From an uncultured virus (IMG/VR IMGVR_UViG_3300050134_000033) (lineage: Duplodnaviria; Heunggongvirae; Uroviricota; Caudoviricetes), in the IMG/VR virus record IMGVR_UViG_3300050134_000033: a stretch of DNA of 64,000 nt; one strand, 5' to 3'. Of this stretch, positions 5,193 to 62,223 are shown piece by piece; positions within the stretch are counted from its first letter, which is position 1, and each line of letters begins with the position of its first letter. The notes beneath the pieces were generated by a model. That model ran no database searches. It was not told the origin of the DNA and saw only the letters and a list, made by a program, of their open reading frames with translations. Made by a program: the position numbers and the translations under genes.

Positions 5193-5583
5193 ACTTGAAT
5201 ACTTCCCTTCCGTAACGTTGTTTGAACCGCACAGCAACCTTCGTGTCAACCCGATAGCTGCGGAACCATTTCAAATATACCACATTCAGCAGCCAAAACT
5301 CAAATTCATAGTGGTGTTGCCCCATGCCGTGGTAGTCGTACTTCAGCTTGTAAGTAAAGGGAACGGCCACCAAACATCCCGCATGGCGGTCCCTTTGCAT
5401 GGATAACCCCTTCCAAAACTTCCAGTTAATGAAAAGCTGGAAGGCATCCCAAAAGCTATGATTCTTGGAATAATCCTGACGGCAGACATGGAGTTGCTCA
5501 CCGTACTCGGGAGCCAGTCGTGTCCATTCCTTGTAGATGCGACCCGGGCGATAAACGTCCTGCGATCTGGGGAGAGCCTTCAT
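5134..5583 (-). CDS. hypothetical protein
   Basis: About 149 aa aromatic-rich ORF in the operon. Confidence 0.5.
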   Translation of the reverse strand: MKALPRSQDVYRPGRIYKEWTRLAPEYGEQLHVCRQDYSKNHSFWDAFQLFINWKFWKGLSMQRDRHAGCLVAVPFTYKLKYDYHGMGQHHYEFEFWLLNVVYLKWFRSYRVDTKVAVRFKQRYGREVFKYVEIQIKDEAEKRTKAQAV

Positions 5584-5790
5584 TTCGGTTGTTTCCCCGC
5601 TGACGGCCAATACCCGCATTTACCACACGCCTTAGGACGGGTCGCGGAACGAACGAGCACCCATTTATGACGTTTGCAACGTTTCATGCGTTTCCTGTGG
5701 CGATGAGAACAGCCGTGAAGATCAAGAATACCACCGCAAATGCTTGGACGCAATAGACGGTGATTCGATCTTGGCGGCTACAGACGATCA

Positions 5791-6291
5791 TTACCGCTCC
5801 ACGTGGCGCAGGAAGATGCCTGCCTCGGAGAACAACTGGAGGGTGTTCTTGAAATCCTCAGCCCATTTCGGGTTGCCCATGTCGGGTTCGTAGGAAACAA
5901 CCGTCGTGATACCACTCTGGACGATGGCACGGGCGCATTCCATGCAGGGAAAGCCCGCGATGTAGAGTGTACAGTCTCGCATCGGAATGCCTACATTCGC
6001 GGCATTGTAGATGGCGTTACGCTCGGGGTGCTCCGTCCACATGTACTTTGCAGGGACCGCGTGACGCTCTGGAACATCGTCATCCGCACCACGAGGAAGG
6101 CCATTGTAGCCTGCGGAGCGAATCTCACGCATCGGGCCTACAATAATGCAGCCCACCTTGCGATCATGATCCTTGCTCCATTCGCCGATCTGCTTGGCGA
6201 GACCGATGAAACGGTTGTCCCACTTCACTTGCGTAGGGGAGGCTACCTGCACGGTTGTGTCGCCGCCAGTTTGAAGTCCGGGTGTGCCCAT
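5791..6291 (-). CDS. dCMP deaminase (copy 2)
   Basis: WSKD..KVGC, GYNG.P.G, HPERNAI, FPCMECARAIVQSGI zinc motifs. Confidence 0.92.
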   Translation of the reverse strand: MGTPGLQTGGDTTVQVASPTQVKWDNRFIGLAKQIGEWSKDHDRKVGCIIVGPMREIRSAGYNGLPRGADDDVPERHAVPAKYMWTEHPERNAIYNAANVGIPMRDCTLYIAGFPCMECARAIVQSGITTVVSYEPDMGNPKWAEDFKNTLQLFSEAGIFLRHVER

Positions 6292-6292
6292 T

Positions 6293-6775
6293 TTAAGCTC
6301 CAACCTTCAGTCCAACTCCCGTGGGGAAAATTTCCGCCAAAGGAATCTCTTCCCATGTTGCGCCGGATGAAGTGATGTAGTCCTTGGTCTTGATAAATGC
6401 GGCAGCCCAGCGAGTGAGGGCGTCGGCGGATGGTTCGGGGAACACGAAATGCGTGATGCCAGCCTGAAGCATCTGTACGCAGCAACGGTCGCAGGAAGCG
6501 AACGGCCAAGTGTAGAGAGTGTAGCCGTTTACAGGCTCACGCGCAAAGACCACGGCGTTAACTTCGCAGTGGACGACGCGGGAATACTTCTCGTCGCGGT
6601 TCGCGTACCATTCCGGCTTGTCTTCCATGTTCTTCGGGAAGCCATTAAATCCCGTAGAGCACAGAGAGTGGTCGGGTCGCGCTATGACGGCCCCTGTTTG
6701 AGTTGAGGGGTCTTTCGACATAGAAGAGACCAACTGCGCCATCTTGAGGTAATGCACGTCCCATTTGTTAGCCAT
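6293..6775 (-). CDS. dCMP deaminase (copy 1)
   Basis: SKDPSTQTGAVI, GFNGFP, HCEVNA, SCDRC; ATG 6775 follows a GAAGG SD. Confidence 0.9.
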   Translation of the reverse strand: MANKWDVHYLKMAQLVSSMSKDPSTQTGAVIARPDHSLCSTGFNGFPKNMEDKPEWYANRDEKYSRVVHCEVNAVVFAREPVNGYTLYTWPFASCDRCCVQMLQAGITHFVFPEPSADALTRWAAAFIKTKDYITSSGATWEEIPLAEIFPTGVGLKVGA

Positions 6776-6806
6776 AGATGCACCTTCTTCCACTAATACT
6801 GAGGTT

Positions 6807-7844
6807 TTAGCGGTCTCCCCCATCTTCTTGCTCAAATTCTTTTCGGTACTGCTTCCAAGAGCGGAAATTGCCAATGTAATCAGCGGTTTCAACAGGGGTA
6901 GCCACGTGCTCAAACGGGCTCCAATGCCCCGATCCTGAGAGCCTACCGCAGAGTTCGATGTCTCGCTTGGCGTCCGACCGCTCACCATTCTCAGGTAAGA
7001 GGTAGCTCACGCGAGCACAGCGAGCCGTAGAAATTTGCTTGAGTGCCTCCCATACCGCCACACCGATATAGATCGGCGGTGTGGGATCGGAAGAGTAGCT
7101 CGGTATTCCCATTCGTTGCTGCCACTCCCAGTGTTGGTACTGCGCTATAAGACCACCCACCCGCCAGATGTCCTTTTGATCGATGAACGGCAGATGCCAG
7201 TCTTGCTCTCCAGCGCCCCACCAACCGGGCCGAAGCATTTGCACACGGTACACACCCAGTTTGGGATTTACGTTATCCAGTGCACACGCACTGCCGTCTG
7301 GGTTGCGGGAATCGAAGTTGACAGTCTCGAACAACCTCTCCACGTACTCGACCTGCGCTTGCATTTGCTTGGCGATGATCTGGAAGTGCGGCTCGGCGTC
7401 GGGGTGATTGCGGAGCTTGAAGAAGTTCTTCAGGTCCGTACACGTCACGATCTGCTGTGTGTACGTCCACGGCTCGATGATGCGGTTTGCCGCCTGCTTG
7501 TGCGCCCCCATCTTGTCCAGTATCCATGAGGCGAGCACGTTGGGGTAGCGAGTGATTCTCCACGTATTCTCAACGACGAATCGCTTCCAGCCCTTCAGTT
7601 CCTCGCCCGCTTGCATACCCTTCTGGTTCTGCCCCACATAGGATGGCACGAAAGGATCAGCGAGAACCTGCTTACGCTGCTTCTTGGCTGGTATGGCTCT
7701 GGAGGATGCGGCGTTGCGGCTGAGCATACGGTGCGTATTGACCTCCGCGAGAATCATCCTCGGGTAGGTCAATACGAACGTATACAGGTTGACACCAGTC
7801 ACAGAGTTCTTGCTGGTGAGGATCAGCTTACTTTCTATCTTCAT
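6807..7844 (-). CDS. thyX: flavin-dependent thymidylate synthase, phage type
   Basis: EVNTHRMLSRNAASSRAIP, NFFKLR, ARCARVSY, HWSPFEH. Confidence 0.9.
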   Translation of the reverse strand: MKIESKLILTSKNSVTGVNLYTFVLTYPRMILAEVNTHRMLSRNAASSRAIPAKKQRKQVLADPFVPSYVGQNQKGMQAGEELKGWKRFVVENTWRITRYPNVLASWILDKMGAHKQAANRIIEPWTYTQQIVTCTDLKNFFKLRNHPDAEPHFQIIAKQMQAQVEYVERLFETVNFDSRNPDGSACALDNVNPKLGVYRVQMLRPGWWGAGEQDWHLPFIDQKDIWRVGGLIAQYQHWEWQQRMGIPSYSSDPTPPIYIGVAVWEALKQISTARCARVSYLLPENGERSDAKRDIELCGRLSGSGHWSPFEHVATPVETADYIGNFRSWKQYRKEFEQEDGGDR

Positions 7845-8482
7845 TTCATTCCTTCAATCGGAACAACGCCATTTTCATTGATCGGCGTGTGGTGGTGGAT
7901 ATGAACATCGGTGGTGACGACAGCGACAAAAGCATTGCAATCGACTTCGGGCTCCACCGCTGCCCGAGTAGTGGGCATCTCCGGGTCTTTCTTGTCCAGC
8001 CCGTTCATGGAACGCTCGGCTCTACTCAGGCGCTCCTGCGCTAGGAAAGCGGCATGGCGTGCCTCAAAGTATTCCGTTTCCAGAGGCGTCGGTGGTTGGC
8101 TGCACGGCGGGCCGGGAACCACGCGCACCACGGTCTGTTCGACCTTCTCCAACTCGTAGCGGATGATGGCGTCCTTGATAGCACTCCATGTTTCGTAGCA
8201 GAACTTGCCGTCAGGAAGATCGTTGCCGCGTGTCCAGTTCTCGCCGGGGCGATAGAACATTGTGCTGGCAATACAGCCAAGGTATGTCGGCGTGGCCGAG
8301 ATGCTGTAGCTGTGCAGCTTCGTGTAGATGATGTAGTTCACGTGGTTGGCGTGACGATCAGTGTTGTGGGGGTTGGTCTCGATACCCTCGCGGGTTTTAC
8401 GAGCGTATTTGTCGAAATTGGAGTAGGGAACTATTTCCTTCATCCATTCGACGAGTTGAGTGCGAAAGCTTTGCGTGTCCAT
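7841..8482 (-). CDS. hypothetical protein
   Basis: 213 aa ORF whose stop overlaps the thyX start. Confidence 0.7.
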   Translation of the reverse strand: MDTQSFRTQLVEWMKEIVPYSNFDKYARKTREGIETNPHNTDRHANHVNYIIYTKLHSYSISATPTYLGCIASTMFYRPGENWTRGNDLPDGKFCYETWSAIKDAIIRYELEKVEQTVVRVVPGPPCSQPPTPLETEYFEARHAAFLAQERLSRAERSMNGLDKKDPEMPTTRAAVEPEVDCNAFVAVVTTDVHIHHHTPINENGVVPIEGMK

Positions 8483-8545
8483 GTTTCTCTTGGACCTCCT
8501 CGTTGAATTTAGCCCGTTGCGGGCATACTTGCTTAATACTGGAGT

Positions 8546-8995
8546 TTAGGTTTCCTGTGCGAGAAATTTTCCTGTGGTTTCGCCGAACGCAAATGACCGA
8601 GCCATCTGGATCAACCAACGGAGATTGGGGATGGTGTCGCAGCGATCCATGACCTCGTGTACGTTGTAGACGCCGACCGTTTCATCAAGCTCGGTCGTCG
8701 CCTTGTCCACGTTGCCGATGGTGTAAAAACAATACAGCATACCATCGTCTCGCTTAAGCTTCAGGTCGAGGAATCGTTTCCACCCACCGATGGAGACCCC
8801 GGTCTCTTCCCTGAACTCACGAATCACAGCCATTTCGGGGTCTTCACCGGGCTCGACTTTGCCGCCGACGCAGTTAAGCAGGCCTTCTTGCCATTCGGGT
8901 CTGAGTTTGCGGATGAGGACAACACGGGAGAGGAGAGGGTCAAACATCAGACCGTCTACGAAGCTAGGGGGCGTGGGTTTTGGTTTGCGTGCCAT
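8546..8995 (-). CDS. Nudix hydrolase
   Basis: Nudix box GGKVEPGEDPEMAVIREFREETG. Confidence 0.92.
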   Translation of the reverse strand: MARKPKPTPPSFVDGLMFDPLLSRVVLIRKLRPEWQEGLLNCVGGKVEPGEDPEMAVIREFREETGVSIGGWKRFLDLKLKRDDGMLYCFYTIGNVDKATTELDETVGVYNVHEVMDRCDTIPNLRWLIQMARSFAFGETTGKFLAQET

Positions 8996-9013
8996 ACCCC
9001 CTAATACTCGTTT

Positions 9014-10876: not shown

Positions 10877-11284
10877 CTACGCTGGGGTTGTGTCATTTGC
10901 CTTCTCCTGCTTCTTTTTCCAGTCGGCGATTGCCGCACGGATGGCGTCCTCGGCGAGGACTGAACAGTGAATCTTCACTGGTGGAAGAGACAACTCACGC
11001 ACAATTTCCATGTTTTTGATGGTGAGTGCTTGGTCGATGGTTTTACCCTTAACCCACTCAGTAGCGAGAGAGCTAGAAGCAATGGCAGACCCACATCCAA
11101 AAGTCTTAAACTTAGCGTCTTCAATGATTCCGGTCTCCTTGTTGACCTTAATTTGGAGCTTCATGACATCCCCACATTCGGGGGCACCCACCAACCCAGT
11201 GCCAACGTCGGAACTGGTTTTATCCATAGACCCCACGTTACGCGGATTGTTGTAATGATCCAAAACTTTTTCGCTATACGCCAT
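10877..11284 (-). CDS. iscU: Fe-S cluster scaffold IscU
   Basis: YSEKVLDHYNNPRNVG, GAPECGDVM, FGCGSAIASSS, LPPVKIHCS. Confidence 0.97.
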   Translation of the reverse strand: MAYSEKVLDHYNNPRNVGSMDKTSSDVGTGLVGAPECGDVMKLQIKVNKETGIIEDAKFKTFGCGSAIASSSLATEWVKGKTIDQALTIKNMEIVRELSLPPVKIHCSVLAEDAIRAAIADWKKKQEKANDTTPA

Positions 11285-12449: not shown

Positions 12450-12773
12450 TTACGCATTGAACGAACTCCCACAACCGCAAGTGCTCTTGACATTCGGATT
12501 GTCGAACTTGAAACCCGCACCTTCGAGCGTCTCCAAGTAGTCAACGGTAACGCCGTCGAGGTACATGAAAGAAGTGCCATCGACCAGCAGCGTCAGGCCG
12601 TCGAACTCGAACGACTTGTCCATCATGCCCTTCTCGTTGTCGAACTGCATGGAGTACGAAAAGCCCGAACAGCCGCCGCCCTTGACGCCCAGCCGTAACG
12701 CTGAGGGCACTGGGTCTTGAGCCGCCATGATCTCTTTCACTTTTAATACTGCCTTGGGAGTTAGGGTAATCAT
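12450..12773 (-). CDS. iscA: A-type Fe-S carrier IscA/ErpA (HesB family)
   Basis: GGGCSGFSY, NPNVKSTCGCGSSF. Confidence 0.96.
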   Translation of the reverse strand: MITLTPKAVLKVKEIMAAQDPVPSALRLGVKGGGCSGFSYSMQFDNEKGMMDKSFEFDGLTLLVDGTSFMYLDGVTVDYLETLEGAGFKFDNPNVKSTCGCGSSFNA

Positions 12774-35120: not shown

Positions 35121-35744
35121 TCAGGCCCGTCTACATGGTAGAAACGACTCGTACTCTCCGTCCCCAAGGACCCGGGAACATGATTCCCTTATGTCTGGCT
35201 GCATGAGGTACGCGGTGACGAATGCCAACACCGAATACTTGCAAAGATTTGCACCGCTCTCCGAGAGAATACCATGCTGGAGCCAGTCCACGTCAAATGA
35301 AATTTCGGCCATCCACGACCAATTCTGGGTGTAGCCTTTGATTGGTGTGTAACTGCTGGAAAAGAGAGCCACTCGATTATCACACCGACGCTCGACCGTA
35401 AAGTCTGGCTCCTCGGTCATAGCATTGACCGCCATGACTGACAGGTTTAGATCGGGGAAATGCTCTTGTAGCCAACAAGCCGCCGTACCCGCACGTCCTA
35501 TACCGACCAGCAGCGTGTTCGGCATCAGAAGTGGGAGCAGGTTAGACGCCCAGAGTTCTACCTGTTTCTCGTAGACCCGGTATGGCGGCAGGTACAATTC
35601 CAGAAATCTGACGTGGGGGAAAGACGATCTGACTAGCTGCTCCAGCTTGTTAGTTTCCTTGTAGCTGGTCGGGTCGAGCAGGAAGTAGACCATCCTGAAA
35701 CGGGAAGGAGGGGTGCCCGTAACGAAGATGGGGGCGGTACTCAC
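35121..35744 (-). CDS. alpha/beta-hydrolase-like protein, possibly inactive
   Basis: LLVGIGRAG occupies the nucleophile-elbow position (GxSxG) but has no Ser. Confidence 0.5.
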   Translation of the reverse strand: MSTAPIFVTGTPPSRFRMVYFLLDPTSYKETNKLEQLVRSSFPHVRFLELYLPPYRVYEKQVELWASNLLPLLMPNTLLVGIGRAGTAACWLQEHFPDLNLSVMAVNAMTEEPDFTVERRCDNRVALFSSSYTPIKGYTQNWSWMAEISFDVDWLQHGILSESGANLCKYSVLAFVTAYLMQPDIRESCSRVLGDGEYESFLPCRRA

Positions 35745-37060
35745 GCCCCACCATCGAATACGTATTCGCCAGATACTCCAGCCATGAGTACGAATGCCCG
35801 CTGGAGAGCCTGTTCATGAGTAGTCAGCTTGCCGTCCAACTGTTCCGTCTCGACAGCGTACAAAACGTCGCGGAAAGTAGGACCCGGGGTATAGCCAGCG
35901 GCGATCAGGTCATTTCCCGTCACTAACGGAGCGGGGTAAATTTCCTCAGCCGTCAAGCCCCTGTAGTCGTTAACAATCGACATCAGAGCCTCGGTGCCGA
36001 CACTGGTGACGCCGATCAGTTCGTTCTGGACAGCGATCTCCAGAGCCAACTCGATCCCCGCCACTCGCATCGTTCGCTTGAAGTGAGAAGGCTTAGAATC
36101 GTATTCCCGCGCCTTCGGAATCGCACTGACGTACAACAATGCAGTCACGATCCGCGCCTTCTCGTCGTTCGACAACTTCAAATTCTGAGCCATCGTCATC
36201 GGCGTCTTAGGGTTCGACGTATCGGCGAGAAACATCGCCATCGCCAACACGGGGTCCGTTGTGTGGAACTCCTCGAATCGGCGCAGCGTTCGACCGAGCA
36301 GAAGGTTGTCCATGAACTCGCGTGGGAACACGTGTGCCGCCAACCCAGAAGAGAACAGGGGGACGAGCCCATCAAGCGGAAATGGGGCCGTCAGCAACTT
36401 GAACATTTCCATAGCTACCCGCTCGCGACTGACATTCACTATCTTCGATGCGTTGGCGGTGATCGCCTCGAACGTGCGCGGCTCGATCTTGAAGCCAAGC
36501 TTAGCGGCAAAGCGCATCGCCCGCATCATCCGCAGGGCGTCCTCGGTGAATCGCTTGTTGGGGTCGCCGATACAGCGGATAAGCCGAGCCTTGATGTCTT
36601 CCCGTCCACCAACAAAGTCAACAATGCCGTAACCGTCGAACATGTCATGGTCTTCGGCGGTCACACCCTTGACAGGGAAATCCATCGGCGTAGTCAGGAG
36701 CAAGCCGTTCATCGTGAAGTCGCGGCGTTCCACGTCCTCGCGTGCAGTCTTGCCGTACTCAACGGTGTCGGGACGCCGACCATCGGAGTACAGACCGTCT
36801 GTGCGGTAGGTAGCAACTTCGATCTGCTCGTCCTTGCCGTCAACATCGACCACAACGATGACCACACCAAAGCTGACGCCAACTGGCAGGGTCTTGGTGA
36901 AGATCGCCTGCACTTGTTCAGGGAGAGCATTCGTGGTCACGTCGAAATCCTTCGGTTCATTGCCGAGGATCATGTCGCGCACACAGCCGCCTACGAGGAA
37001 AGCTTCAAAGCCGTTCCTCTGCAATTCTCGGATGACTGTGGTTGCGGCGAATCTGTTCAC
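35741..37060 (-). CDS. cca: CCA-adding tRNA nucleotidyltransferase (class II)
   Basis: FLVGGCVRD..KDFDV, EVATYR, RRDFTMN, EDALRMMRAMRF, SRER; GTG 37060 after an AGGAG SD. Confidence 0.92.
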   Translation of the reverse strand: MNRFAATTVIRELQRNGFEAFLVGGCVRDMILGNEPKDFDVTTNALPEQVQAIFTKTLPVGVSFGVVIVVVDVDGKDEQIEVATYRTDGLYSDGRRPDTVEYGKTAREDVERRDFTMNGLLLTTPMDFPVKGVTAEDHDMFDGYGIVDFVGGREDIKARLIRCIGDPNKRFTEDALRMMRAMRFAAKLGFKIEPRTFEAITANASKIVNVSRERVAMEMFKLLTAPFPLDGLVPLFSSGLAAHVFPREFMDNLLLGRTLRRFEEFHTTDPVLAMAMFLADTSNPKTPMTMAQNLKLSNDEKARIVTALLYVSAIPKAREYDSKPSHFKRTMRVAGIELALEIAVQNELIGVTSVGTEALMSIVNDYRGLTAEEIYPAPLVTGNDLIAAGYTPGPTFRDVLYAVETEQLDGKLTTHEQALQRAFVLMAGVSGEYVFDGGA

Positions 37061-37314
37061 TTTTGTTCTCCTATGAGATACGTTCCCGTCTTCTCGATCA
37101 CGATGACTCTCGGTGCCGTCATCTTGGGGGGTTTGATTTCTTCCTCCGCGCCCAATCCTGCCCAATCATACGGCAGCGTCTTGCCGCAGTCCAAGCAGGA
37201 GACCGTGGTCTTGCCCTTATCCTTGCCCGCCTTGATCGTCTGAGGAAACGAATAGCGGTCGTGGGTACACCGACCCACAAACGACAGTAATGAATCCACC
37301 AAAGTTCGTCTCAT
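37057..37314 (-). CDS. small Zn-ribbon protein
   Basis: CTH...CLDCG; downstream of a class I promoter. Confidence 0.6.
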   Translation of the reverse strand: MRRTLVDSLLSFVGRCTHDRYSFPQTIKAGKDKGKTTVSCLDCGKTLPYDWAGLGAEEEIKPPKMTAPRVIVIEKTGTYLIGEQK

Positions 37315-37322
37315 ATACCCCT

Positions 37323-37354
37323 ATTATACCAAGAAAACTCCCGAAAACTTTAGG
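37323..37354 (-). promoter_or_regulatory. class I promoter variant CCTAAAGTTT-N16-TATAAT
   Basis: Same spacing, degenerate upstream box. Confidence 0.7.
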
Positions 37355-37370
37355 AATAACCCCTTTGGTT

Positions 37371-37988
37371 TCAAGTATTTGAAACTAACCCCGCATCTAC
37401 TAACCGCTGAAACCAGTCGGGGAGCCAGCTTTGCAACTCCGCGAGAGTCAGATTACTCTTAACGGTATTGGCTTTAAGGGTGCAGAGCACCACATTATTT
37501 TTGGTGTAGCCTTTGTTCGATCTAATCCGATCTACCGACGTAGCTGCTTGATTTTTTCCTCGGCCCGCTAAACAAACCATATCGACATCGGTATAAAAAC
37601 ATTTACCCCCTTGTTTTGTGAACAGTCCCATCAAAAACTCAGGGGTGATACCAACCTTCGTCTTCGCCCGCTTACGAATTGCAACGCATCGTTCTCGAAA
37701 AAACCATACGGGATCGGAGTTGAGCCGATCAATCCTATACTGTTTGAGGCATTTTCGGCATCGTTTATAACCTGATCTTGCATAGAATGCTTTCGCCAGT
37801 TTCGGTTTATGGCATGTCCCGCATACAATCAGGCTTCCTTTACGTTCAACTTTGTAATTTTTAGGATTAGGCTGTAGCCCAGCACGAGACAGTATGTATT
37901 GTACTCCCCCGTAAGACACACCTGTACGACGGGCAATCTCATGAGACCAAAGACCCCCTGCGTGAAATTCTAGAACCTCACTCTCCAT
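37371..37988 (-). CDS. HNH-like endonuclease with N-terminal HTH and Zn finger
   Basis: SHEIARRTGVS; QGGKCFYT...SVDRIRSNKGYTKNNVVLC...N. Confidence 0.82.
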   Translation of the reverse strand: MESEVLEFHAGGLWSHEIARRTGVSYGGVQYILSRAGLQPNPKNYKVERKGSLIVCGTCHKPKLAKAFYARSGYKRCRKCLKQYRIDRLNSDPVWFFRERCVAIRKRAKTKVGITPEFLMGLFTKQGGKCFYTDVDMVCLAGRGKNQAATSVDRIRSNKGYTKNNVVLCTLKANTVKSNLTLAELQSWLPDWFQRLVDAGLVSNT

Positions 37989-39117
37989 CTTTTTTGAAAG
38001 TTGCATCGGCACGTGGTTTGATCTTACCCCATATAATGCTTCCGTAGTCTTTTTTATCCAGCATCGCGAACAGGATCGAGCACAATTCGGGCGTCTTCTG
38101 GAAGTACAAAGCGACCGACTTGCGGTACAAGGCGGGACCCAAGTCGCCGAGATCGTTCTTCGGGCGGCGGTCGAACACATACATGGCCTTCCGCTCCATC
38201 TCCCGATACCGAGCACGAAACTGCTCCACCCATCCTGAAAACCACGCGATGAACGGCGCGGGCATCGTCGGGTCGGCGATGATGGTGTCGATTGCCTCGT
38301 TCTGCCCAACCTCCAGCATTTCCCAGATCGCCTTGGGATTCAAGCCAGTCAAGATGCGGTGCAAGCGCACGTAATCCGCGAACTTCACCTTGATCTTCAA
38401 GGGCGCTACATCACGGCCCTTGTCGTAAGTCAAGACGTAGCCCTCTTCGTTCAAGTTGTTCTCGGCAGCGCATTCCGCCAGCGTCTTCTCGAACTTCTTG
38501 ACGATGGGAAACTTCTTGGCGAAAGCCCAATCCTCGCAGAACAGCCGACCGAGTTCGTAACCAGTTGCCAAGTCCACGAAGCCGAGCAACACGAGACCCT
38601 CAAAGTCGTAGTCAACGACGATGCGGTTCTCTTTGTAGATCACTTCGCACACGGGCGTAGAAAACACACCATCGCTGAAAAGCGGATAGTTGTGACGGAG
38701 CCACTCGGTCGCCCACTTTGCCTGATCCGAAGCAAACGAACCACGAGTCGCAACCCACCACTTGCCATCCCAATAGTACGGGAGCCCCATCGACCCATCC
38801 AACTTCTGGGTCGCCAGCGGTGTGATGTTCGGCAAGTTCGCGTCCATCGTCTCAGGCAGGTACTCCGTGTTGTAGTTGTGGAACTTGTTGAAGCCGCGAG
38901 CGATCACAACATCGCCATCAGGCGTGACAGCACAAATCAACCCACGGCACACGTTGGTTGCCGCATCCCAGATGCGACCGAACTGAGCCTGCTCCGAGTA
39001 GTTCAGGATGTAAAGCTGATCCGGGTAATCGGGGTGAACCTGCTTACGGATTACGCCGTCCTCGATATGCTTGAGCAGCAGATCGACAGGCAAAACGTCC
39101 TTGAGGAAAACCTTCAT
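37978..39117 (-). CDS. rnlA: RNA ligase 1 (T4 Rnl1-like)
   Basis: CRGLI, KFHN, motif I KLDGS, ATRGSF, NRIVVDY, EEGYV, KIKVK. Confidence 0.92.
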   Translation of the reverse strand: MKVFLKDVLPVDLLLKHIEDGVIRKQVHPDYPDQLYILNYSEQAQFGRIWDAATNVCRGLICAVTPDGDVVIARGFNKFHNYNTEYLPETMDANLPNITPLATQKLDGSMGLPYYWDGKWWVATRGSFASDQAKWATEWLRHNYPLFSDGVFSTPVCEVIYKENRIVVDYDFEGLVLLGFVDLATGYELGRLFCEDWAFAKKFPIVKKFEKTLAECAAENNLNEEGYVLTYDKGRDVAPLKIKVKFADYVRLHRILTGLNPKAIWEMLEVGQNEAIDTIIADPTMPAPFIAWFSGWVEQFRARYREMERKAMYVFDRRPKNDLGDLGPALYRKSVALYFQKTPELCSILFAMLDKKDYGSIIWGKIKPRADATFKKDGE

Positions 39118-39259
39118 AGTTTGATTCCAAAGCCATCCACCAGAACCACAATCAAGATCGCGACGAGCGTCAGGCCCATACCCCAGCCGCGTTTACCGTC
39201 GAACAATGCCGCGTTCGCAAACATGAGCAGGGTGAGCACAGTGTACCAGTCGTGCCGCG

Positions 39260-39568
39260 TCATCTTCGCTTTAGTTTTTCTAACAGTCGGTTCCACACGT
39301 CCTCCAGATTGTTGACCGCGCCCCAGAACTTCCACTGCACTTCATTCCCGAACTTCGTGGCGTAATGCGTGAGATAATCCCACCAGCCTGCGGGAGCGAT
39401 GAGGTACTGAGTACCCTTCGCACGCCTTACCACAAACAGCCCGTTCGGGCTCGGAGCATTCACCATCCGCACCAGCCCGGTGATTTGAATTCTGTCACCC
39501 CGTCTAAACAGATCGGGCTGCATCGTGGTGGTGATCGTTGTTTCCTCGTCTCTACCCCAACACAACAT
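39260..39568 (-). CDS. hypothetical protein
   Basis: 102 aa ORF. Confidence 0.5.
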   Translation of the reverse strand: MLCWGRDEETTITTTMQPDLFRRGDRIQITGLVRMVNAPSPNGLFVVRRAKGTQYLIAPAGWWDYLTHYATKFGNEVQWKFWGAVNNLEDVWNRLLEKLKRR

Positions 39569-39921
39569 TAGTTTACCTCTTGCTCCAGCCTCGTGAGAAG
39601 ATCATTGATTTTGACGACTGGCTTTGCGTGGTCGCACATACATTCCCGCTTGGTACAAAAGCCGTCGCCTTCGAGCACTTCGACCAACTCATCGAACTCT
39701 TTTCTGAAATCAGCTACGAGTTGCTTGTCCACGGTCGGCCTCCTGCGCCTTCTGAATTTCCCTGCTCCGCATGTTCCCCAAGGTCGTGTCAATCGTGTAC
39801 GAAATCCAACGCATTGTGTCGGGGTACGTCTCGGTCAGCCACTTGATGATGCGACCATCTTGGTCGGCTCGCATCCGAAAGCAAGCCCGCTCGACGTACC
39901 TCGGCACATAATGCACTCCCA

Positions 39922-41031
39922 TTAGAAGTTCTCCAACGCACCGCACTCGCCGCAGTAGCCGCCAACCACCCAGCCTTCCTTCGGCTTCGCGTGTGCCTGA
40001 GAACATCCGGGCGTGTGGATCGGTTCACCGCGTACAGGGTAAACCTTGATCCCATTTGCCCTCCACATTTTCACGACCTGAGGGCGGTCATCGAGAACGA
40101 ATGCGATGTTCTCCTTCCCGATGACGGCGATCAACTCGTTGAGGATTTCCTGCTTGACCACTACGTCGGGGCGGTTGTCCCCATTGTAGCGCATCAGGAT
40201 GTGGTCGAACGGGATACCATACCCCTCCAACCACTCGCAGGTGTCATCCCCGCAGAAATCGTGACGACCCGATACCGCACAAAGATTGTGCGACGGAGCC
40301 AAAGCCCGAATCCAGTCTGCCACAACCTCGTAGCAGCCATCCAAGAGGACCTTGTGCTCCTCGTAGGGATTCCGCTTCCCACGATGGTCCGCTGTGGTGC
40401 CGTCCATATCGAACAACACCCACGGGCGTCCAACCAGACGAGGCACGAACCCGCCCTTCAAGAGGGCCTGCCGCTCCATCCAAGCTCGGGTTGGCGACGT
40501 TGGCGTCATGTCTCGGTTGCTCATATTGAAACTCGTCAAATCCTTGTACTGGCGGCGGATGATCTCCTCACCAACCATGACGCCCTTTGGCGTCCCACAG
40601 GTCGGACAAGGAACTCCGCGTGCAATGTCCCGCTCAACACACTCCTTCAACGGAACATCCATGACCAAGAAGCAGAGCTTAACCTTCTGCTCGACCGCAA
40701 ACTCTTCCCACTTCTGCCGCGTGTTGCGGATGCAGTTCGTATCGTCGATGACTACGTTCTTGCCGGACTGGAGAGCGATACGAGCCCCCTCCATCTGCCA
40801 AGTGCGAACAAAGTTCTCGTTGTGCTTGTTCCAGTCCGCCCCGCAGAACAACATCTCGCGCATCTTGTCGCGGTTCAGGCGAACGGTCTTGCCCTGCGAC
40901 CGTTTCACCCGCTGCATGACCTCGGTACTCTTCCCAGAGCCAGAGATACCGACGCAGACGGTCAACTCGGGAGCGTGGTCACGCCCCGCTGAGTAGTCGT
41001 ATCGAGTCTCCGTGAATCCCTTATTCGCCAT
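39922..41031 (-). CDS. pseT: polynucleotide 5'-kinase/3'-phosphatase (T4 PseT-like)
   Basis: P-loop GISGSGKST, NRD, DDTN; HAD motifs DMDGT, SGR, DDR. Confidence 0.93.
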   Translation of the reverse strand: MANKGFTETRYDYSAGRDHAPELTVCVGISGSGKSTEVMQRVKRSQGKTVRLNRDKMREMLFCGADWNKHNENFVRTWQMEGARIALQSGKNVVIDDTNCIRNTRQKWEEFAVEQKVKLCFLVMDVPLKECVERDIARGVPCPTCGTPKGVMVGEEIIRRQYKDLTSFNMSNRDMTPTSPTRAWMERQALLKGGFVPRLVGRPWVLFDMDGTTADHRGKRNPYEEHKVLLDGCYEVVADWIRALAPSHNLCAVSGRHDFCGDDTCEWLEGYGIPFDHILMRYNGDNRPDVVVKQEILNELIAVIGKENIAFVLDDRPQVVKMWRANGIKVYPVRGEPIHTPGCSQAHAKPKEGWVVGGYCGECGALENF

Positions 41032-41808: not shown

Positions 41809-42402
41809 TTAGATGCCACGTTTCGACCTTTCCTTCTCCCAATCCCGCAGGACTTGCTTGCTCACCTGCTTGGACATCCGTGCCCCGTACTGCGGGCGCT
41901 TGTCCGTGTAATTGAAGAACATGATGCCGTTCAAATGGTCGAACTCATGCTGCGCGACTCGGGCATTGATGTCCGTCAGCACGATCTCTTTCGCTACGCC
42001 ATCCGTCTGCCGATACTGCATTGTCACTTTCTCGGCTCGGGAGACCTGTTCGTGAATCCCGGGCAGCGACAGGCAACCCTCACGAGCATACACCGTTTTG
42101 CCCTCAAATACCAGTGTCGGGTTACACACGACGATTGGCTTCCTGACTTCAAGGGGCGGTGCACCAGCGCCGGCCCACCTACGATTAACTTCCTCGTCGT
42201 CGGGGAAGCACATAGCAAAAATCCGCTTGCTGATGCCAACCTGCGGAGCCGCGAGCCCCACACCGTTCCTGTCGTGCATTGCCAGCCCGAGGGACACCGC
42301 AAAGTCATCCAACTTCGGGCCGAACTCATTGTCCTCCACCGCATCGCAAATAGTAGACAGGACTGGATCATCCCAATACCGCACGATCAATTTATCTGCC
42401 AT
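41809..42402 (-). CDS. def: peptide deformylase
   Basis: GVGLAAPQVG, EGCLS, QHEFDHLNG. Confidence 0.96.
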   Translation of the reverse strand: MADKLIVRYWDDPVLSTICDAVEDNEFGPKLDDFAVSLGLAMHDRNGVGLAAPQVGISKRIFAMCFPDDEEVNRRWAGAGAPPLEVRKPIVVCNPTLVFEGKTVYAREGCLSLPGIHEQVSRAEKVTMQYRQTDGVAKEIVLTDINARVAQHEFDHLNGIMFFNYTDKRPQYGARMSKQVSKQVLRDWEKERSKRGI

Positions 42403-46000: not shown

Positions 46001-46276
46001 TCATTCCTCCCAATTCCTGACATCCAAAATTTTCTTGATGTGTAACTTGTAGTCTGTCGCGCTCAGAGCGATCTTGTCAATCAACACCGTAACCTCGGGA
46101 GCCGTCTTCGACATGCCATTTATCATGCGGAGTTCAAATGGGAGAGAGATTGCATGTCCGTGGACACCGAATCGTTTTTCCCAATAAGGCTTACGTTCCC
46201 GATACTCGGTCTTTTTTGTGCCTACGACAATGGCCGCGAGGAACTCACGTTTAATGGTGGTTGTTATGCGCTTCAT
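46001..46276 (-). CDS. ASCH domain protein
   Basis: FLAAIVVGTKKTEYRERKPYW. Confidence 0.8.
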   Translation of the reverse strand: MKRITTTIKREFLAAIVVGTKKTEYRERKPYWEKRFGVHGHAISLPFELRMINGMSKTAPEVTVLIDKIALSATDYKLHIKKILDVRNWEE

Positions 46277-46833
46277 CGTATGCCTCTCTGTCGATGAGTC
46301 GGCCCATACAGGTTGCTCTCGCCAGCGACCGCATTCGTCTTGACGGGCATGGCGTGCGGATCAAACTTGATCGTCTTCTTAGGATTCAAGACGGTAACCT
46401 TCCTGTCCTGTTTGCGAGCATACCGCACCGTCGTCCATGTGCCCGAACGAACCTCTTCGTCCTCGGTCACGGGCGTGGCGATCATTTCCTCGGTCTCGTC
46501 TACTATATCATGGTCGCGGGCGATGAAAGGTTTTGGATCGCGGACCTCATCGTTGAAATCGGTGAACGCTCGGAACTTCGTTTCGCTAGGGTGATTCGGC
46601 GGGAAGCCCGGATGACAGACGATTCGTACACGGCAGCGGACTGAGTAATGACTGTTCCGCAGATCGTTGAGGATTGTAGCGGCTTGGGCATCGGCACCGA
46701 TGCAGTCGCCATGATGGAATTCGATGTACCCGTACTCTCGGAGGAGTTGGGTGAACAGGAGGGCGATGGACTCTTTCTGGAACTCGTCCATGCCATGGTG
46801 GGTGCCCGTGAATCCCAACTTGAGTGCTCTCAT
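46273..46833 (-). CDS. SLOG superfamily (Smf/DprA/YspA-like) protein
   Basis: GFTGT, HHGDCIGAD, ARDHDIVD, RSGTWTTVRYA. Confidence 0.8.
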   Translation of the reverse strand: MRALKLGFTGTHHGMDEFQKESIALLFTQLLREYGYIEFHHGDCIGADAQAATILNDLRNSHYSVRCRVRIVCHPGFPPNHPSETKFRAFTDFNDEVRDPKPFIARDHDIVDETEEMIATPVTEDEEVRSGTWTTVRYARKQDRKVTVLNPKKTIKFDPHAMPVKTNAVAGESNLYGPTHRQRGIR

Positions 46834-47066
46834 TTCTTTTTGAGCCTCTTGCGGACGGCGAGATCGTGCGGGCAGAGGGAGTTGATGGGCGTGTGTTTGA
46901 TGTAGCCGATACGGAGACGCTTCAGGATAGCCTTCAGGCGGATGCGACCGATGGAATTGATGACCAATTCGGCACTGCTGTCGGTGTCGGTACAACCCGG
47001 CTCGCTCATGTCAAACAAGGCGGACTCGATCTGGTCGATAGCGGCGTCAATACCCAATGGCTTCAT
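46830..47066 (-). CDS. hypothetical protein
   Basis: 78 aa, directly downstream of the Y-RNA-like elements. Confidence 0.5.
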   Translation of the reverse strand: MKPLGIDAAIDQIESALFDMSEPGCTDTDSSAELVINSIGRIRLKAILKRLRIGYIKHTPINSLCPHDLAVRKRLKKK

Positions 47067-47084
47067 CGAAGCTCCAGAAAATAG

Positions 47085-47218
47085 GCCGAGGGAACAAGCG
47101 GAACGGCTAGTTGAGGTTGGAGTCGAACCAACGACCTCCTGATTTCAAGTCAGGCGCTCTACCGCTGAGCTACTCTCCCTAAGGCGAGAGAAGTACCCGT
47201 TTCCAATCACCACTCGGC
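47085..47218 (-). ncRNA. Y-RNA (YrlA)-like RNA containing a tRNA-like domain
   Basis: Closing stem GCCGAG/CUCGGC; GUGAUUGGAAACGGGUACUUC...CCGUUCCGCUUGUUCC; internal cloverleaf. Confidence 0.7.
47108..47179 (-). tRNA. tRNA-like domain, anticodon UGA (nominally Ser), probably non-translational
   Basis: D arm GCUC/GAGC, anticodon arm CCUGA-CUUGAAA-UCAGG, T arm GUUGG-UUCGACU-CCAAC; two acceptor-stem mismatches, short variable loop, no CCA. Confidence 0.7.
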
Positions 47219-47227
47219 GAAAATATG

Positions 47228-47307
47228 GTGGGGGAACAAGCGGGACGGGGTAGCCTTTCGGCATCTCTCGTTAAAGGAAGAAGTACCCGTTTCCAATCAC
47301 CACCCAC
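47228..47307 (-). ncRNA. second, short Y-RNA-like RNA
   Basis: Shares identical 25-nt and 12-nt blocks with 47085-47218; closing stem GUGGG/CCCAC; internal GCC-GAAA-GGC hairpin. Confidence 0.65.
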
Positions 47308-47313
47308 ACAAGC

Positions 47314-47496
47314 TTACTTGGGACAATGGTTCGTATGGTCGTTGCGCTGCTGGCGGGATCGAAAGTGAACCTCGTTGCAGAACCCGCAGCTAAACGGCAA
47401 CCTTACACCCGTGCCATCCGCACCGTCCCTGAAAATTTTGATGGTACTGACTTTCCCGTCTTTCTTGATCTTCCGTTTTATGGCTTTGAATGGCAT
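47314..47496 (-). CDS. small C2H2-like zinc-finger protein
   Basis: CGFC...HTNHC; leaderless after TTGCAC-18-TAGGAT. Confidence 0.6.
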   Translation of the reverse strand: MPFKAIKRKIKKDGKVSTIKIFRDGADGTGVRLPFSCGFCNEVHFRSRQQRNDHTNHCPK

Positions 47497-47518
47497 GAGT
47501 TAATCCTACCACGACCTA

Positions 47519-47977
47519 TTAAATCCGTGCAACAGAATTCCTGTTGCCACAAGGTATTCTATACCGTGAAACAGCGTCGAGCATCTGTTCGTGCGTCAAG
47601 ATGTTCGACTTGAACTGGTTATGGTTATTGCAACAAGACTGACTGTTTTCCAGCGTGTAGCCCAGCGTGTTGTCCCTGCGATCTACACCCGGCCTAATGG
47701 TCAAATCCGCCGTTATCGCATACACACACGGTTGTGTGACGATGCGTTCGTATTGCTCCAGCGTCAACGCAAATTCCATTCCCCGCCGCTTGGCACTTCC
47801 CCGTGCAAAAGCGTACCGCGATTTCGTGCTCGGAAACTTATTCAACGCACGATTATAGGCTCGGTTACAGTCCAAGCACCGCCGCGAATCCGTTACCGTC
47901 CCTTGCGAGCCCGGATGAACTGGACAAGGCCGCAAGTGCCGCTTTGGAAAATCTAGTCCCTTAAACGACCGACGCAT
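47519..47977 (-). CDS. HNH-like endonuclease
   Basis: GVDRRDNTLGYTLENSQSCC..N..K. Confidence 0.78.
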   Translation of the reverse strand: MRRSFKGLDFPKRHLRPCPVHPGSQGTVTDSRRCLDCNRAYNRALNKFPSTKSRYAFARGSAKRRGMEFALTLEQYERIVTQPCVYAITADLTIRPGVDRRDNTLGYTLENSQSCCNNHNQFKSNILTHEQMLDAVSRYRIPCGNRNSVARI

Positions 47978-48007
47978 GTACTAAATAATACCACGCTTAC
48001 GGGGAAT

Positions 48008-48940
48008 TTAGGAAGCCCCTACCGCCGTTCCGTCTTCGAGTTTCCAGCCTTCCTCCTGTATCGATTGGAGATCGAAATTGAAAGCCGCAAGCATGTCGGC
48101 CTCAGTCCCGGTCCTCACAACGACCATGTTCTCTAGATCAAAGTATCGCTTTTCGTTGATGTGGACGCGGAATCGAAATTCTCCTGTTGGCGGTTGATCT
48201 ACGACAACGTATCGCCACTTTGCCCCCTTCGATAAAAACGCAGCCCTTACCAGCTTGACGGGAGGCACGGGGTTCTTTGCTTGCTCGCGGGCGATTTCCT
48301 GCCACTCTTCAACGGAACGGTGCAGGTTAATGATAGCCTGTTTGATGTCGGTCAGCTTCCGACCATCTCGGAAGAGCCCCTCGATGTGATTCAGGTACTC
48401 AACGTATTTCTGCCAGTGCTCCACATGCTTCTTGATCTGCGGCTGCCACTCTTCGGGCTTAGCCCGAACGATGCCGATTGTCGTCAACATCGTCGAGAAC
48501 GAGTTGTGGGCGTTTTGATTCAGGGTGCCCATTGCGGTGAACGTCTTACCACTCAGGTCAATCTGCTCTTTGTAGAGAATCCCCTTCCCCCCGAAGATTG
48601 CGTCGTTCACGGCTTTCCACATCGCCCCGAAGCCGTTAGGCATGTCTCCCGAGAAAATGTGCGGGAGATGGTCGGGAGGCGCGACAAACAGCGCGTATAG
48701 TGCTCTAATGTAAAGCTCTTCAGGGTCACGCCAACGGGTCAGATAAGCGAAAATTCGCCCCTTGTTCACGTCATCGATTACTGACTGGATAAGCTCGACG
48801 ATACACCTTTTAGTCCAGTTAAGAATCTCGGCTGGGCTTTGGCGGACGCAAGCCTGCACCGTCAAGTTATCTGTGTGAGGAGTCTTCGTCCCACAACGCG
48901 GGACAGGACAATGTGGATTGATTTCTTTCTTTTTGCTCAT
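48008..48940 (-). CDS. hypothetical protein, tandem paralog A
   Basis: Aligns end to end with 49057-49977. Confidence 0.8.
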   Translation of the reverse strand: MSKKKEINPHCPVPRCGTKTPHTDNLTVQACVRQSPAEILNWTKRCIVELIQSVIDDVNKGRIFAYLTRWRDPEELYIRALYALFVAPPDHLPHIFSGDMPNGFGAMWKAVNDAIFGGKGILYKEQIDLSGKTFTAMGTLNQNAHNSFSTMLTTIGIVRAKPEEWQPQIKKHVEHWQKYVEYLNHIEGLFRDGRKLTDIKQAIINLHRSVEEWQEIAREQAKNPVPPVKLVRAAFLSKGAKWRYVVVDQPPTGEFRFRVHINEKRYFDLENMVVVRTGTEADMLAAFNFDLQSIQEEGWKLEDGTAVGAS

Positions 48941-49056: not shown

Positions 49057-49977
49057 TTACGATCCCTCGACCGCCCAGCCCTCTTTCACGGCTGACTGAA
49101 TGTCAAAATCGAGAGCCGCCAACATATCGGCCTCAGGTCCCCTCCGTAGGACAGCCATGTTCTTCTCGTCAGAACAGCGGTTTTTGCTGATGTGAACGCG
49201 GAATCGAACTTCCTCGCCTGACGGCTGATCCACGAAGAGAGCACGCCAGTGTTCACCCTTCGACAAGAACACTGTCTTCAAGAGCTTAACTGGGGGAGGA
49301 CCAGCTTTCACTGGCTTACCGGCTTGCTCAATCCAGTAACTCTTAGGACGACTCATCGAGATGAGCGCCGACAAGACAGTTGCCTTGTCTCGCTCATCGT
49401 GAAACAGGTTCGCCAAGTGGTTTAGAAATGTGCAGTAGATCGAAAAGTGCTGCTCATAACGACCACTTTTGTACACCTCAAGATACTCCGGATTACGCAC
49501 CAAACCAATCACCAGCAACAACGCCGAAAACGACACGTGCGCCCCCTGATGCAGTGTCTCCATTGGAGTAAACTCTCCTTGAGTCAGCCCCGGTTGCACT
49601 GTGTCCAGCGTTCCGCGACCTTCAAAGATTACCTCGTTCACTTTGCGATACCGTGCTGTGAGACCGTTAGGCTGATCATCAGACATGATGTGAGCGATCT
49701 CGTCTGGTGAGGCGATGAAAACCGTGTACAACGTGCGAATGTACAACTCCTCGATTTGGCGACTGCGCGAAAACACCGCCAGCCAACGTTCGGCGTCCAT
49801 GTCAGCACGAATAGACTTACCAAGTTCTGCGATGGCGTAAAGCGTCCAGCGACACGCTTTCTCTGGGTCACCGAACTCGCGAACAAGACTTTGGATATTT
49901 GGATCGTTGAGGTGGGGCACCGTGGTTTGGCAACCCGGCACAGGACAGTTGAGATTCAACTTCTTTGATTTAGGCAT
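49057..49977 (-). CDS. hypothetical protein, tandem paralog B
   Basis: Shared CPVP.C.T..PH, EELYIR.LY, PPVKL..FLSKG, RFRVHI, EADMLAA, EGW. Confidence 0.8.
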   Translation of the reverse strand: MPKSKKLNLNCPVPGCQTTVPHLNDPNIQSLVREFGDPEKACRWTLYAIAELGKSIRADMDAERWLAVFSRSRQIEELYIRTLYTVFIASPDEIAHIMSDDQPNGLTARYRKVNEVIFEGRGTLDTVQPGLTQGEFTPMETLHQGAHVSFSALLLVIGLVRNPEYLEVYKSGRYEQHFSIYCTFLNHLANLFHDERDKATVLSALISMSRPKSYWIEQAGKPVKAGPPPVKLLKTVFLSKGEHWRALFVDQPSGEEVRFRVHISKNRCSDEKNMAVLRRGPEADMLAALDFDIQSAVKEGWAVEGS

Positions 49978-61282: not shown

Positions 61283-61576
61283 ATGAATCTCGCGCTTTTA
61301 GCCGAACTCGGCGTTGCCTGTGGAGCGATCAGTTTGGTCGTCGCCGAGGGGAAGATTTTCGCCAAACCCCACGACTGGTTGGCACCGAAATTCCCATTTT
61401 TAGACCAATTATTGTCCTGCTCATGGTGCGTCAGCCATTGGGTATCGGCGATGCTCGTGCTGGCGTACTACAAGGCAATCGGCGGGGGTTTCATCGATCA
61501 CATCGTGCAAGGCTTTATCGTTATTGCGATCTCTCAAGTCGTAGCGGGCATCATGAGAAAGTGCATCGAACACTAA
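61283..61576 (+). CDS. small membrane protein, DUF1360-like (CxWC)
   Basis: LLSCSWCVSHWVS and three hydrophobic segments; AGTATTA box 6 nt upstream. Confidence 0.7.
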   Translation: MNLALLAELGVACGAISLVVAEGKIFAKPHDWLAPKFPFLDQLLSCSWCVSHWVSAMLVLAYYKAIGGGFIDHIVQGFIVIAISQVVAGIMRKCIEH

Positions 61577-62223
61577 TGCCCCCCCTCGTAAGTGCGCTGA
61601 CACCGACCTTTAACCGCCGAGCTTTCTTCCCTCGGGCTATCCAGTGCTTCCTCGCACAAGATTACCCGAATCTGGAGTGGATCATACTGGACGATGGTGC
61701 GGACCCAATCGGCAGTCTTTTGCCGACCGATCCGAGGATCAAATATTACCATGAAAAGCCCAAAAAACACCATGGGGCGAAGATGAACCGCTGCTTTGAG
61801 TTATCGAGTGGCGAGTTCGGGATTGTCTTCGATGATGATGATTGGTATCCGGCGAATCGAATCACCCGCCAGATCACGCCGCTCATCGAGAGGCCCGCGT
61901 TAGACCTCTCGGGAACGAGCACTCTTTACTACTATCAGCACGGCACCCAAACAGCCTATCAGTACACGACTCCGAAAGGAATCGGTTGGCTCGCGTCCAT
62001 AGCGGTACGCAAATCCGCTTGGGAGAAATTAAAGTTCGACAACATGGCGGGAGGAGCGGACTACAATTTTCAAAAGAAGACGCCTGTTTCAGCTAGGCTT
62101 GATCTGAACGACCCCGCCTTGGTTGTGGCGGCGATCCATCCGGCTAATGCGTGCAGAAAACATCTGAGCAAGGATTACAAACCTGAATCGTGGGAGACAA
62201 TTCAAAGACTATGGCAAAAGTAA
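61576..62223 (+). CDS. glycosyltransferase family 2
   Basis: VSALTPTFNR, QDYPNLEWIILDDG, FDDDDWY; ATG overlaps the previous stop. Confidence 0.92.
   Translation: MPPLVSALTPTFNRRAFFPRAIQCFLAQDYPNLEWIILDDGADPIGSLLPTDPRIKYYHEKPKKHHGAKMNRCFELSSGEFGIVFDDDDWYPANRITRQITPLIERPALDLSGTSTLYYYQHGTQTAYQYTTPKGIGWLASIAVRKSAWEKLKFDNMAGGADYNFQKKTPVSARLDLNDPALVVAAIHPANACRKHLSKDYKPESWETIQRLWQK

Follow-up and report, generated by a model that had tools for sequence, protein, structure and literature searches.

We analysed a 64,000-nucleotide stretch of DNA from an uncultured virus (IMG/VR IMGVR_UViG_3300050134_000033; Caudoviricetes), hereafter the window, which is part of a large phage genome occurring in peat metagenomes. 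Two adjacent elements on its minus strand, units A and B, fill a 247-nt gap (47067-47313) between two small open reading frames (ORFs). They are probably phage Y RNA genes, unit B being a non-decoding tRNA mimic mounted on a Ro60-binding scaffold. In this model the paired ends of each of the two tandem units would form a docking site for the ring protein Ro60 (Rsr, TROVE); unit A would be a short Y RNA whose hairpin has a GNRA cap, and unit B would join the same docking frame to a near-complete class-I tRNA body in normal order, carrying an anticodon stem-loop of the tRNA-Ser(UGA) type. The fold energies are unexceptional, and the case was built on sequence comparison and not on folding energy.

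The shared frame and its link to Ro60 genes

An earlier reading made from the letters alone (the sequence-only reading) had noted two minus-strand units with identical 25-nt and 12-nt blocks, closing stems that differ between the units and are each self-complementary, UAUUUU after each unit and a GNRA hairpin in one of them. All of these were found again, the hairpin in unit A and the trailing motif as UAUUUUC directly after both units:

47225-47310, minus strand: unit A, candidate short Y RNA (YrlB-like); R1 model (see below) 48.6 bits, E 1.8e-11
47303-47307 with 47228-47232, minus strand: closing stem P1 of unit A, GUGGG/CCCAC
47279-47303, minus strand: 25-nt 5′ block, copy 1 (unit A), exact repeat
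47254-47263, minus strand: hairpin of unit A, GCC-GAAA-GGC
47232-47243, minus strand: 12-nt 3′ block CCGCUUGUUCCC, copy 1 (unit A), exact repeat
about 47220-47224, minus strand: U-rich tail after unit A, similar to that after unit B
47083-47220, minus strand: unit B, candidate Y RNA frame around a tRNA body; R1 39.3 bits, E 8.2e-9, with a 76-nt insert
47213-47218 with 47085-47090, minus strand: closing stem P1 of unit B, GCCGAG/CUCGGC
47189-47213, minus strand: 25-nt 5′ block, copy 2 (unit B), exact repeat
47197-47204 with 47100-47106, minus strand: inner stem P2 of unit B, with a bulged A
47090-47101, minus strand: 12-nt 3′ block CCGCUUGUUCCC, copy 2 (unit B), exact repeat
47075-47082, minus strand: U-rich tail AUUUUCUG after unit B

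The 25-nt block is a candidate for the Ro60-binding strand together with the 5′ strand of P2 and UACUUC, and its 21-nt core occurred twice in the 64 kb against 0.00 times expected from 100 shuffles. In unit A a conserved internal loop (GUGGUGAUUGG ... CCGCUUGUUCC) is followed by the inner stem P2; within the window units, GCCGAAAG is restricted to the hairpin of unit A. The subtype of unit A, with its C-GAAA-G hairpin, was also found beside Ro60 genes in three other viral loci (L111 7889-7974, L142 7841-7927 and L100 7064-7150).

We built a covariance model, R1, from an alignment of 24 short Ro60-adjacent units, none of them taken from the window, and applied it to the window and to 47 viral loci (644,526 bases) with Ro60 relatives, which had been retrieved with the Ro60 protein of the viral record G002. 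In the window exactly two matches were obtained at E<=10, unit A and unit B. The Ro60 loci gave 143 matches at E<=0.01, all 143 on the strand of the Ro60 gene; all loci but one, 46 of 47, contained matches, and the exception begins at the Ro60 gene. Relative to that gene, 135 matches lie upstream and 7 downstream, with a median distance of 211 nt and 124 of them within 1 kb. The inner stem P2, not used in the selection of units, is paired in 89.9% of cells, and in 7 of the 8 base pairs both partners vary. Taken over the whole structure, pairing reaches 93.8% of cells and falls to 33-45% once partners are shifted by 1-3 columns; the covariation score of 0.975 (0.242 in shuffles) was reached by none of 500 shuffles. 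Also, TTTT within 15 nt past the unit end was found in 39% of 145 R1 units versus 4.7% of random positions.

The units of G002, a 111.8-kb viral record estimated to be complete, share one design: closing stem, GUGGCG, variable stem, UUACUUC, variable insert, stem, CGYUUGUUCCC and closing stem. The 12-nt 3′ block of the window units (CCGCUUGUUCCC) corresponds to the CGYUUGUUCCC of this family consensus. All 12 R1 matches of G002 lie at 40.95-45.0 kb, run on one strand and have the TROVE gene directly downstream (TROVE matches at 39.2-40.1 kb; ORF of 483 amino acids, L099:2653-4104, corresponding to about 38.65-40.10 kb of the record). Several sister units match the Rfam YrlA model (RF02553) below its gathering score of 69 bits, with 40.9 (E 2.3e-6, a unit of G002), 38.3, 34.0 and 29.4 bits. 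Thus, with R1 matching both units and the family bound to Ro60 genes, the frame of units A and B is placed by sequence comparison in an RNA family tightly linked with phage Ro60 genes. The resemblance to a Ro60-binding Y RNA frame, which the sequence-only reading had noted, was thereby supported, as it was by a close relative of the window phage described below. Bacterial Y RNAs have been recognised by such gene linkage, according to the available text of Chen et al. 2014 (PMC4201824). Within the frame, the conserved internal loop (GUGGYGWAG opposite CGYUUGUUCC) is where Ro60 would dock.

The array of G002 (L099 = G002:C1:36000-47000, about 4960-9010, minus strand) holds 12 R1 units, or 13 by eye, in about 4 kb, with small ORFs, tRNA-His and tRNA-Trp between units, and is unusually large for a single TROVE gene. 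Simple pattern searches found few further relatives. A 15-mer of the 5′ block gave 43 loci in viral contigs, none of which extends the motif, and these were set aside as chance matches; of the 45 loci listed by a pattern scan for the 3′ block only two were real, both in G002, the others lying in coding sequence. The nearest record, G001 (51 kb, 16% complete), showed neither a sequence matching the region nor a TROVE gene, and R1 found nothing in it at E<=0.001.

The tRNA body of unit B

Unit B encloses the following elements:

47108-47179, minus strand: tRNA-like domain, 72 nt, normal order; Rfam RF00005 66.6 bits, ARAGORN anticodon tga
47143-47149, minus strand: anticodon loop CUUGAAA (UGA at 47145-47147)
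47186-47192, 47180-47185 and 47173-47179, minus strand: leader hairpin predicted by the minimum free energy (MFE) fold, with UUCUCUC, loop GCCUUA and GGGAGAG respectively

The domain runs acceptor, D arm, anticodon arm, 5-nt variable loop, T arm and discriminator A, has no encoded CCA, and scores well above the RF00005 gathering score of 29 bits. Five of the seven acceptor pairs are standard, G3.A70 and A4.A69 being non-standard, and the trailer is paired into P2 starting one base past the discriminator. The sequence-only reading had described the three arms in normal order, the UGA and a short-variable-arm body foreign to tRNA-Ser, and all of this held. Its term 'differently permuted' did not: the sequence order of unit B is normal, and the acceptor 5′ strand is predicted to be captured by the leader.

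We then considered the anticodon arm. The CUUGAAA loop is the same as in 3 of the 4 genuine long-arm tRNA-Ser(tga) genes of the Ro60 loci; all four of these genes measure 92-94 nt versus 72 nt for the body in unit B, which carries a 5-nt variable loop in place of the class II long arm expected of tRNA-Ser. Seryl-tRNA synthetase requires the long variable arm as a serine identity element. A Ser-type anticodon arm thus appears to be reproduced on a body which its cognate synthetase would be expected to refuse. An isotype assignment by global identity against 109 other ARAGORN calls was rejected, long tRNAs scoring trivially high, and matches in a cultured-phage collection were confined to the tRNA part, with 79-88% identity.

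The leader UUCUCUC is complementary to all seven acceptor 5′ bases. The predicted MFE of unit B with the leader hairpin was -48.1 kcal/mol versus -39.8 kcal/mol with the cloverleaf forced, a gap of 8.3 kcal/mol, and the thermodynamic ensemble gave probabilities of 0.0 for the normal acceptor pairs and 0.08-0.24 for the CUCUC-G-CC register. The earlier proposal that the acceptor 5′ strand pairs poorly with its own 3′ strand and well with upstream sequence was retained for the leader as read in the MFE fold.

The 145 R1 matches were sorted by simple T-loop and D-arm sequence motifs:

<=112 nt, no motifs: 94 units
<=112 nt, T only: 6 units
<=112 nt, D only: 1 unit
>112 nt, T before D (YrlA order): 28 units
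>112 nt, T only: 7 units
>112 nt, neither motif: 6 units
>112 nt, D only: 2 units
>112 nt, D before T: 1 unit (unit B)

Unit B was thus the sole case of normal motif order in this set. Similarly, ARAGORN made 111 tRNA calls over the window and the 47 loci, and in two of these the 5′ block was flagged at most 70 nt upstream: the window tRNA, inside its frame, and a false call that is itself a Y unit. Transfer RNA arrays do occur near Y units, with long arrays in loci L108, L114 and L146 and the His and Trp genes of G002.

The normal-order design is not unique to unit B and recurs in other Ro60 phages. A unit beside Ro60 in G005 (locus L128) has a normal-order tRNA-like body with an Rfam tRNA score of 41.3 bits, a 2-bp acceptor and a 6-nt loop. 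In a second group of phages, represented by locus L172 (2203-2626, plus strand), three tandem Y units are followed by Ro60; the first is of YrlA type (34.0 bits), and the second and third have normal-order tRNA-like bodies with Rfam tRNA scores of 40.9 and 53.3 bits. This group comprises at least 63 similar viral contigs of 76-152 kb, mostly from one metagenome. The loop of the third unit is CUUUUAA in 12 of 13 distinct variants among the matches listed, and the stem below it covaries (AUACU/AGUAU versus AUAUC/GAUAU). A second pattern scan returned at least 80 loci, at least 63 of them in this one phage group, the other 16 matching loci being chance; among the matches listed, 61 of 63 loci of the group carried CUUUUAA. 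The same loop is found in both genuine tRNA-Lys(ttt) genes of the Ro60 loci.

A unit beside Ro60 in locus L112 (7783-7911, plus strand) has a tRNA-like part that is apparently permuted within the D loop, in the order D 3′ half, a 6-bp GAAA-capped hairpin replacing the anticodon arm, variable loop, T arm, acceptor hairpin and D 5′ half. It would be a third arrangement of the tRNA module.

The unit region was present in 23 peat DNA runs and partly in one metatranscriptome run. A 157-nt contig from that RNA library spans 47082-47224, which takes in unit B and the two points where frame and tRNA meet; three differences were seen in it, of which the one at 47154 changes an anticodon-stem C-G pair to U-G. 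What follows is no more than that the library contained the sequence of unit B, in one continuous molecule or in overlapping reads, and contigs give no RNA ends. Short contigs of high depth at 47139-47173 in DNA runs, with 4-5 differences, were discarded as probably derived from tRNA genes of other organisms.

The main rival to the Y RNA model takes unit B for the precursor of a working tRNA, which RNase P and 3′ trimming would release and the CCA-adding enzyme complete; the product would decode UCN or carry another amino acid, and the Y frame would serve processing, quality control or termination. We regard it as unlikely, though a serious possibility, kept alive by the high tRNA score and by the YrlA of M. 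smegmatis, which RNase P cuts and to which CCA is added (Chen et al. 2014, PMC4201824, in the text available). A body with all arms and a canonical 7-nt loop would be expected of such a precursor, tRNA genes are interspersed with Y units in related arrays (G002, L108, L114 and L146), and the phage has its own CCA-adding enzyme, Rnl1-type ligase and polynucleotide kinase/phosphatase. Against this, the RNA-library contig crosses both frame/tRNA junctions, and just 1 of the 111 ARAGORN calls lies inside a frame. Two central acceptor pairs are mismatched, the leader would mask G1-G7, the trailer is paired into P2 almost at once, and a Ser anticodon on a short-arm body is, by general knowledge, one that seryl-tRNA synthetase should not charge. 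With the acceptor 5′ strand predicted to be sequestered by the leader, a 3′ end that enters the putative Ro60 stem without CCA and no long arm, a decoding role is disfavoured, and a non-decoding tRNA mimic is the most likely role of unit B.

A relative with a Ro60 gene and the phage setting

A metagenome scan with the 21-nt core yielded six contigs in which both units are unaltered. Four of them are the same phage (99.98-100% identity), and two, L275 and L277, are a diverged relative, with 97.5% identity in the aligned flank beside the units and 92.5% in the downstream gene block. Comparing L277 with the window, we found no difference in the 228 positions of the units versus 11 in 212 for the adjoining aligned flank (Fisher p 2.8e-4), and 60 of 800 positions differed in the block of genes downstream. 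This comparison of sequences shows strong constraint on units A and B.

In L277, two further R1 units are followed by an ORF of 509 amino acids (L277 1682-3211) with a TROVE domain (41.2 bits versus a cut-off of 23), and units A and B lie about 310 nt downstream of it. One of the extra units is a partial Rfam YrlA match (29.4 bits, E 0.002). At the place of this Y-Y-Ro60 segment the window has a 306-amino-acid ORF (49057-49977, minus strand) with no likeness to Ro60. The window phage thus retains both Y RNAs strictly conserved without a neighbouring Ro60 gene, and the TROVE gene that the sequence-only reading would have looked for is missing in the window and present in the relative. Likewise, the distance of at most 4 kb from a Ro60/TROVE gene used by Chen et al. 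2014 separates the units from such a gene in L277, while no such gene lies in the window.

The 306-amino-acid ORF and another of 310 amino acids (48008-48940, minus strand) are paralogues, 44% identical, without a Pfam or PHROG family. Atlas leads for the former (DUF6988, WGR, ligase C-terminal) were all sub-threshold, and no family was assigned. An HNH/endonuclease VII-like gene (47519-47977, minus strand) and the adjacent 310-amino-acid ORF are absent in L277, where the flanks join directly; together they look like a mobile endonuclease insertion.

With the Ro60 cassette swapped out, units A and B could be non-functional remnants that have lost their partner and have yet to decay. The window does lack the Y1-Y2-Ro60 segment that L277 has at the same place, and no R1 unit of the complete records G002 and G005 is more than about 5 kb from the TROVE gene. 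We nevertheless consider this improbable: the units differ at 0 of 228 positions versus 5-7.5% in neighbouring sequence, the locus is identical in six metagenome contigs, the RNA-library contig covers unit B, and a Ro60 gene may be found elsewhere in the genome or in the host. Finally, that the shared blocks are transcription-termination or RNase-processing signals around a tRNA, unrelated to Ro60, would agree with the U-rich tails and with the silence of the Rfam Y RNA models on the window but is very hard to reconcile with 143 of 143 R1 matches on the Ro60 strand and clustered at the Ro60 gene, with the silence of R1 in the 51-kb relative fragment G001 (E<=0.001) and elsewhere in the window, and with the YrlA matches of sister units.

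Several observations weigh against the Y RNA model itself. Pfam found TROVE in none of the 117 ORFs of the window, and the best tblastn match of the G002 Ro60 to the window had an E of 1.8. The YrlA search proposed in the sequence-only reading did not bear fruit there: YrlA and all other Rfam Y RNA models gave nothing on 46950-47450 at E<=10, and the sister units themselves, at 29.4-40.9 bits, stay below the gathering score. The 5′ strand, which reads GGUGAUUGG, lacks the motif given by Chen et al. 2014, GNCGAAN0-1G, in its literal form; many family members show GGCGAAG or GGUGAAG there. Whole-unit fold stability is ordinary versus shuffles (z -0.77 and -0.64). Covariation, another check that had been suggested, was obtained for the inner stem P2; for the outer stem P1, pairing in 100% of cells is circular because the selection script demanded P1 complementarity. 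The leader hairpin has no covariation support, all six metagenome copies being identical. The tRNA score of 66.6 bits equals the level of real tRNAs and fits processing to a free tRNA, and the RNA evidence is one contig from one library, in which DNA carry-over is possible.

Three genes of a tRNA/RNA repair cluster (35741-41031) lie 6-11 kb from the units and on the same strand:

35741-37165, minus strand: CCA-adding enzyme
37978-39117, minus strand: Rnl1-type RNA ligase
39922-41031, minus strand: polynucleotide kinase/phosphatase

In the parts available of two papers, Ro60 is frequently co-encoded with RNA-repair genes (jumbo-phage survey PMC7824862; PMC7790460). The genes of the window fit this setting, which is no proof. 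The window also encodes a peptide deformylase (41809-42402), an integrase and HNH endonucleases, and two Fe-S cluster assembly proteins (minus strand), IscU-like NifU_N (10877-11284, E 1.9e-55) and IscA-like Fe-S_biosyn (12450-12773). The ORF at 46273-46995 (minus strand) probably starts at an internal Met (MRALKLGFTGTHHG...) and has no Pfam match; its motifs resemble those of a Rossmann protein of the SLOG/DUF2493 type. Neither this protein nor that at 48008-48940 has relatives among the viral contigs. Scans for sigma-70 promoters and simple terminators over 46700-48100 gave nothing. A 96-nt tRNA-Phe (aaa) called by ARAGORN at 61551-61646 (minus strand) has no Rfam support at the gathering score, overlaps ORFs and is probably a false call. 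A 133-kb metagenome contig continues for about 84 kb beyond the window.

Possible role and comparison with known systems

The role of the tRNA-like module in bacterial Y RNAs has been an open question since 2014. In our model, unit B would stay whole, its acceptor end masked by the leader and P2, and the exposed tRNA elbow and anticodon arm would recruit or distract factors that recognise tRNA. Ro60-Y RNA particles tether the exonuclease PNPase, as stated in the available text of Chen et al. 2014 (PMC4201824) and of a study of Thermus phage phiLo (PMC12135203). Unit B might act as a bridge between tRNA-handling factors and Ro60 with its exonuclease partner, the Ro60 being supplied by a phage gene of the type found in the relative or by the host. 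Alternatively, it would titrate factors recognising its anticodon arm. A whole tRNA body with a species-exact anticodon loop would point to readers of the anticodon arm, such as modification enzymes, repair enzymes and anticodon nucleases, with the Ser-UGA loop here and the Lys-UUU loop in the other phage group as testable candidates.

A bolder suggestion, which we put forward as speculative, is that some phages display particular tRNA anticodon arms on Ro60-binding scaffolds as baits for host anticodon nucleases or other tRNA-targeting defences. The bait would be Ser-UGA here and Lys-UUU in the large group of 76-152-kb phage contigs. Such baits would absorb the attack, or pass the attacker or the damaged RNA to Ro60 and its exonuclease or to phage repair enzymes, and the window phage would have kept its baits despite the loss of its own Ro60 gene. 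More generally, phage Y RNA genes are more numerous and modular than reported, with 12 units beside one Ro60 gene in one phage, and they can persist unaltered after the Ro60 gene next to them has been replaced.

Phage Y RNAs and their tRNA mimicry are already in print. The PhageMaP preprint (PMC11482910), in the text available, guesses that Y RNAs may be among the tRNAs annotated close to a phage Ro60-like gene. In the literature searched we found no Y RNA built around a complete tRNA that is unpermuted and has a genuine anticodon loop; the bacterial Y RNA reviews of 2018 and 2020 may mention normal-order variants.

Compared with ordinary phage tRNAs (RF00005), unit B has the cloverleaf and the tRNA-Ser(UGA) loop but is nested in a Y frame, combines a short variable arm with a Ser anticodon, has two acceptor mismatches and a leader complementary to G1-G7, and would leave no free 3′ end. 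Unit A resembles YrlB and other short Y RNAs, including Yrl1 and Yrl2 of phage phiLo as given in the available text (PMC12135203): it is likewise built of stem, internal loop and stem, has no tRNA module and stands in tandem with a longer Y RNA. It differs from them by its divergent sequence, with no literal CGAA in the 5′ strand.

The nearest published case in the available text of Chen et al. 2014 is Yrn1 of Deinococcus radiodurans, compared here by description and not by sequence, in which an anticodon-like arm lies between D-like and T arms. The loop of Yrn1 has 6 nt, its D arm is uncertain and a variable arm is missing; in unit B the loop is canonical, a variable loop and a D arm are present, and the score is that of a full tRNA.

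YrlA (RF02553), described in Salmonella, mycobacteria and 22 phages in the same text (PMC4201824), shares with the present family the 5′ and 3′ ends that pair into a stem, the purine-rich 5′ strand (GGCGAAG/GGUGAWNG here, GNCGAAN0-1G as published), a gene beside Ro60 and a tRNA-like module, in agreement with the scores of 29-41 bits that sister units reach on its model. In the circularly permuted YrlA module the order is T arm, acceptor-like hairpin and D arm, with the Ro60 stem in place of the anticodon arm. In unit B, by contrast, the order is D arm, anticodon arm and T arm, a true 7-nt loop and the variable loop are kept, and the putative Ro60 stem extends from the acceptor end.

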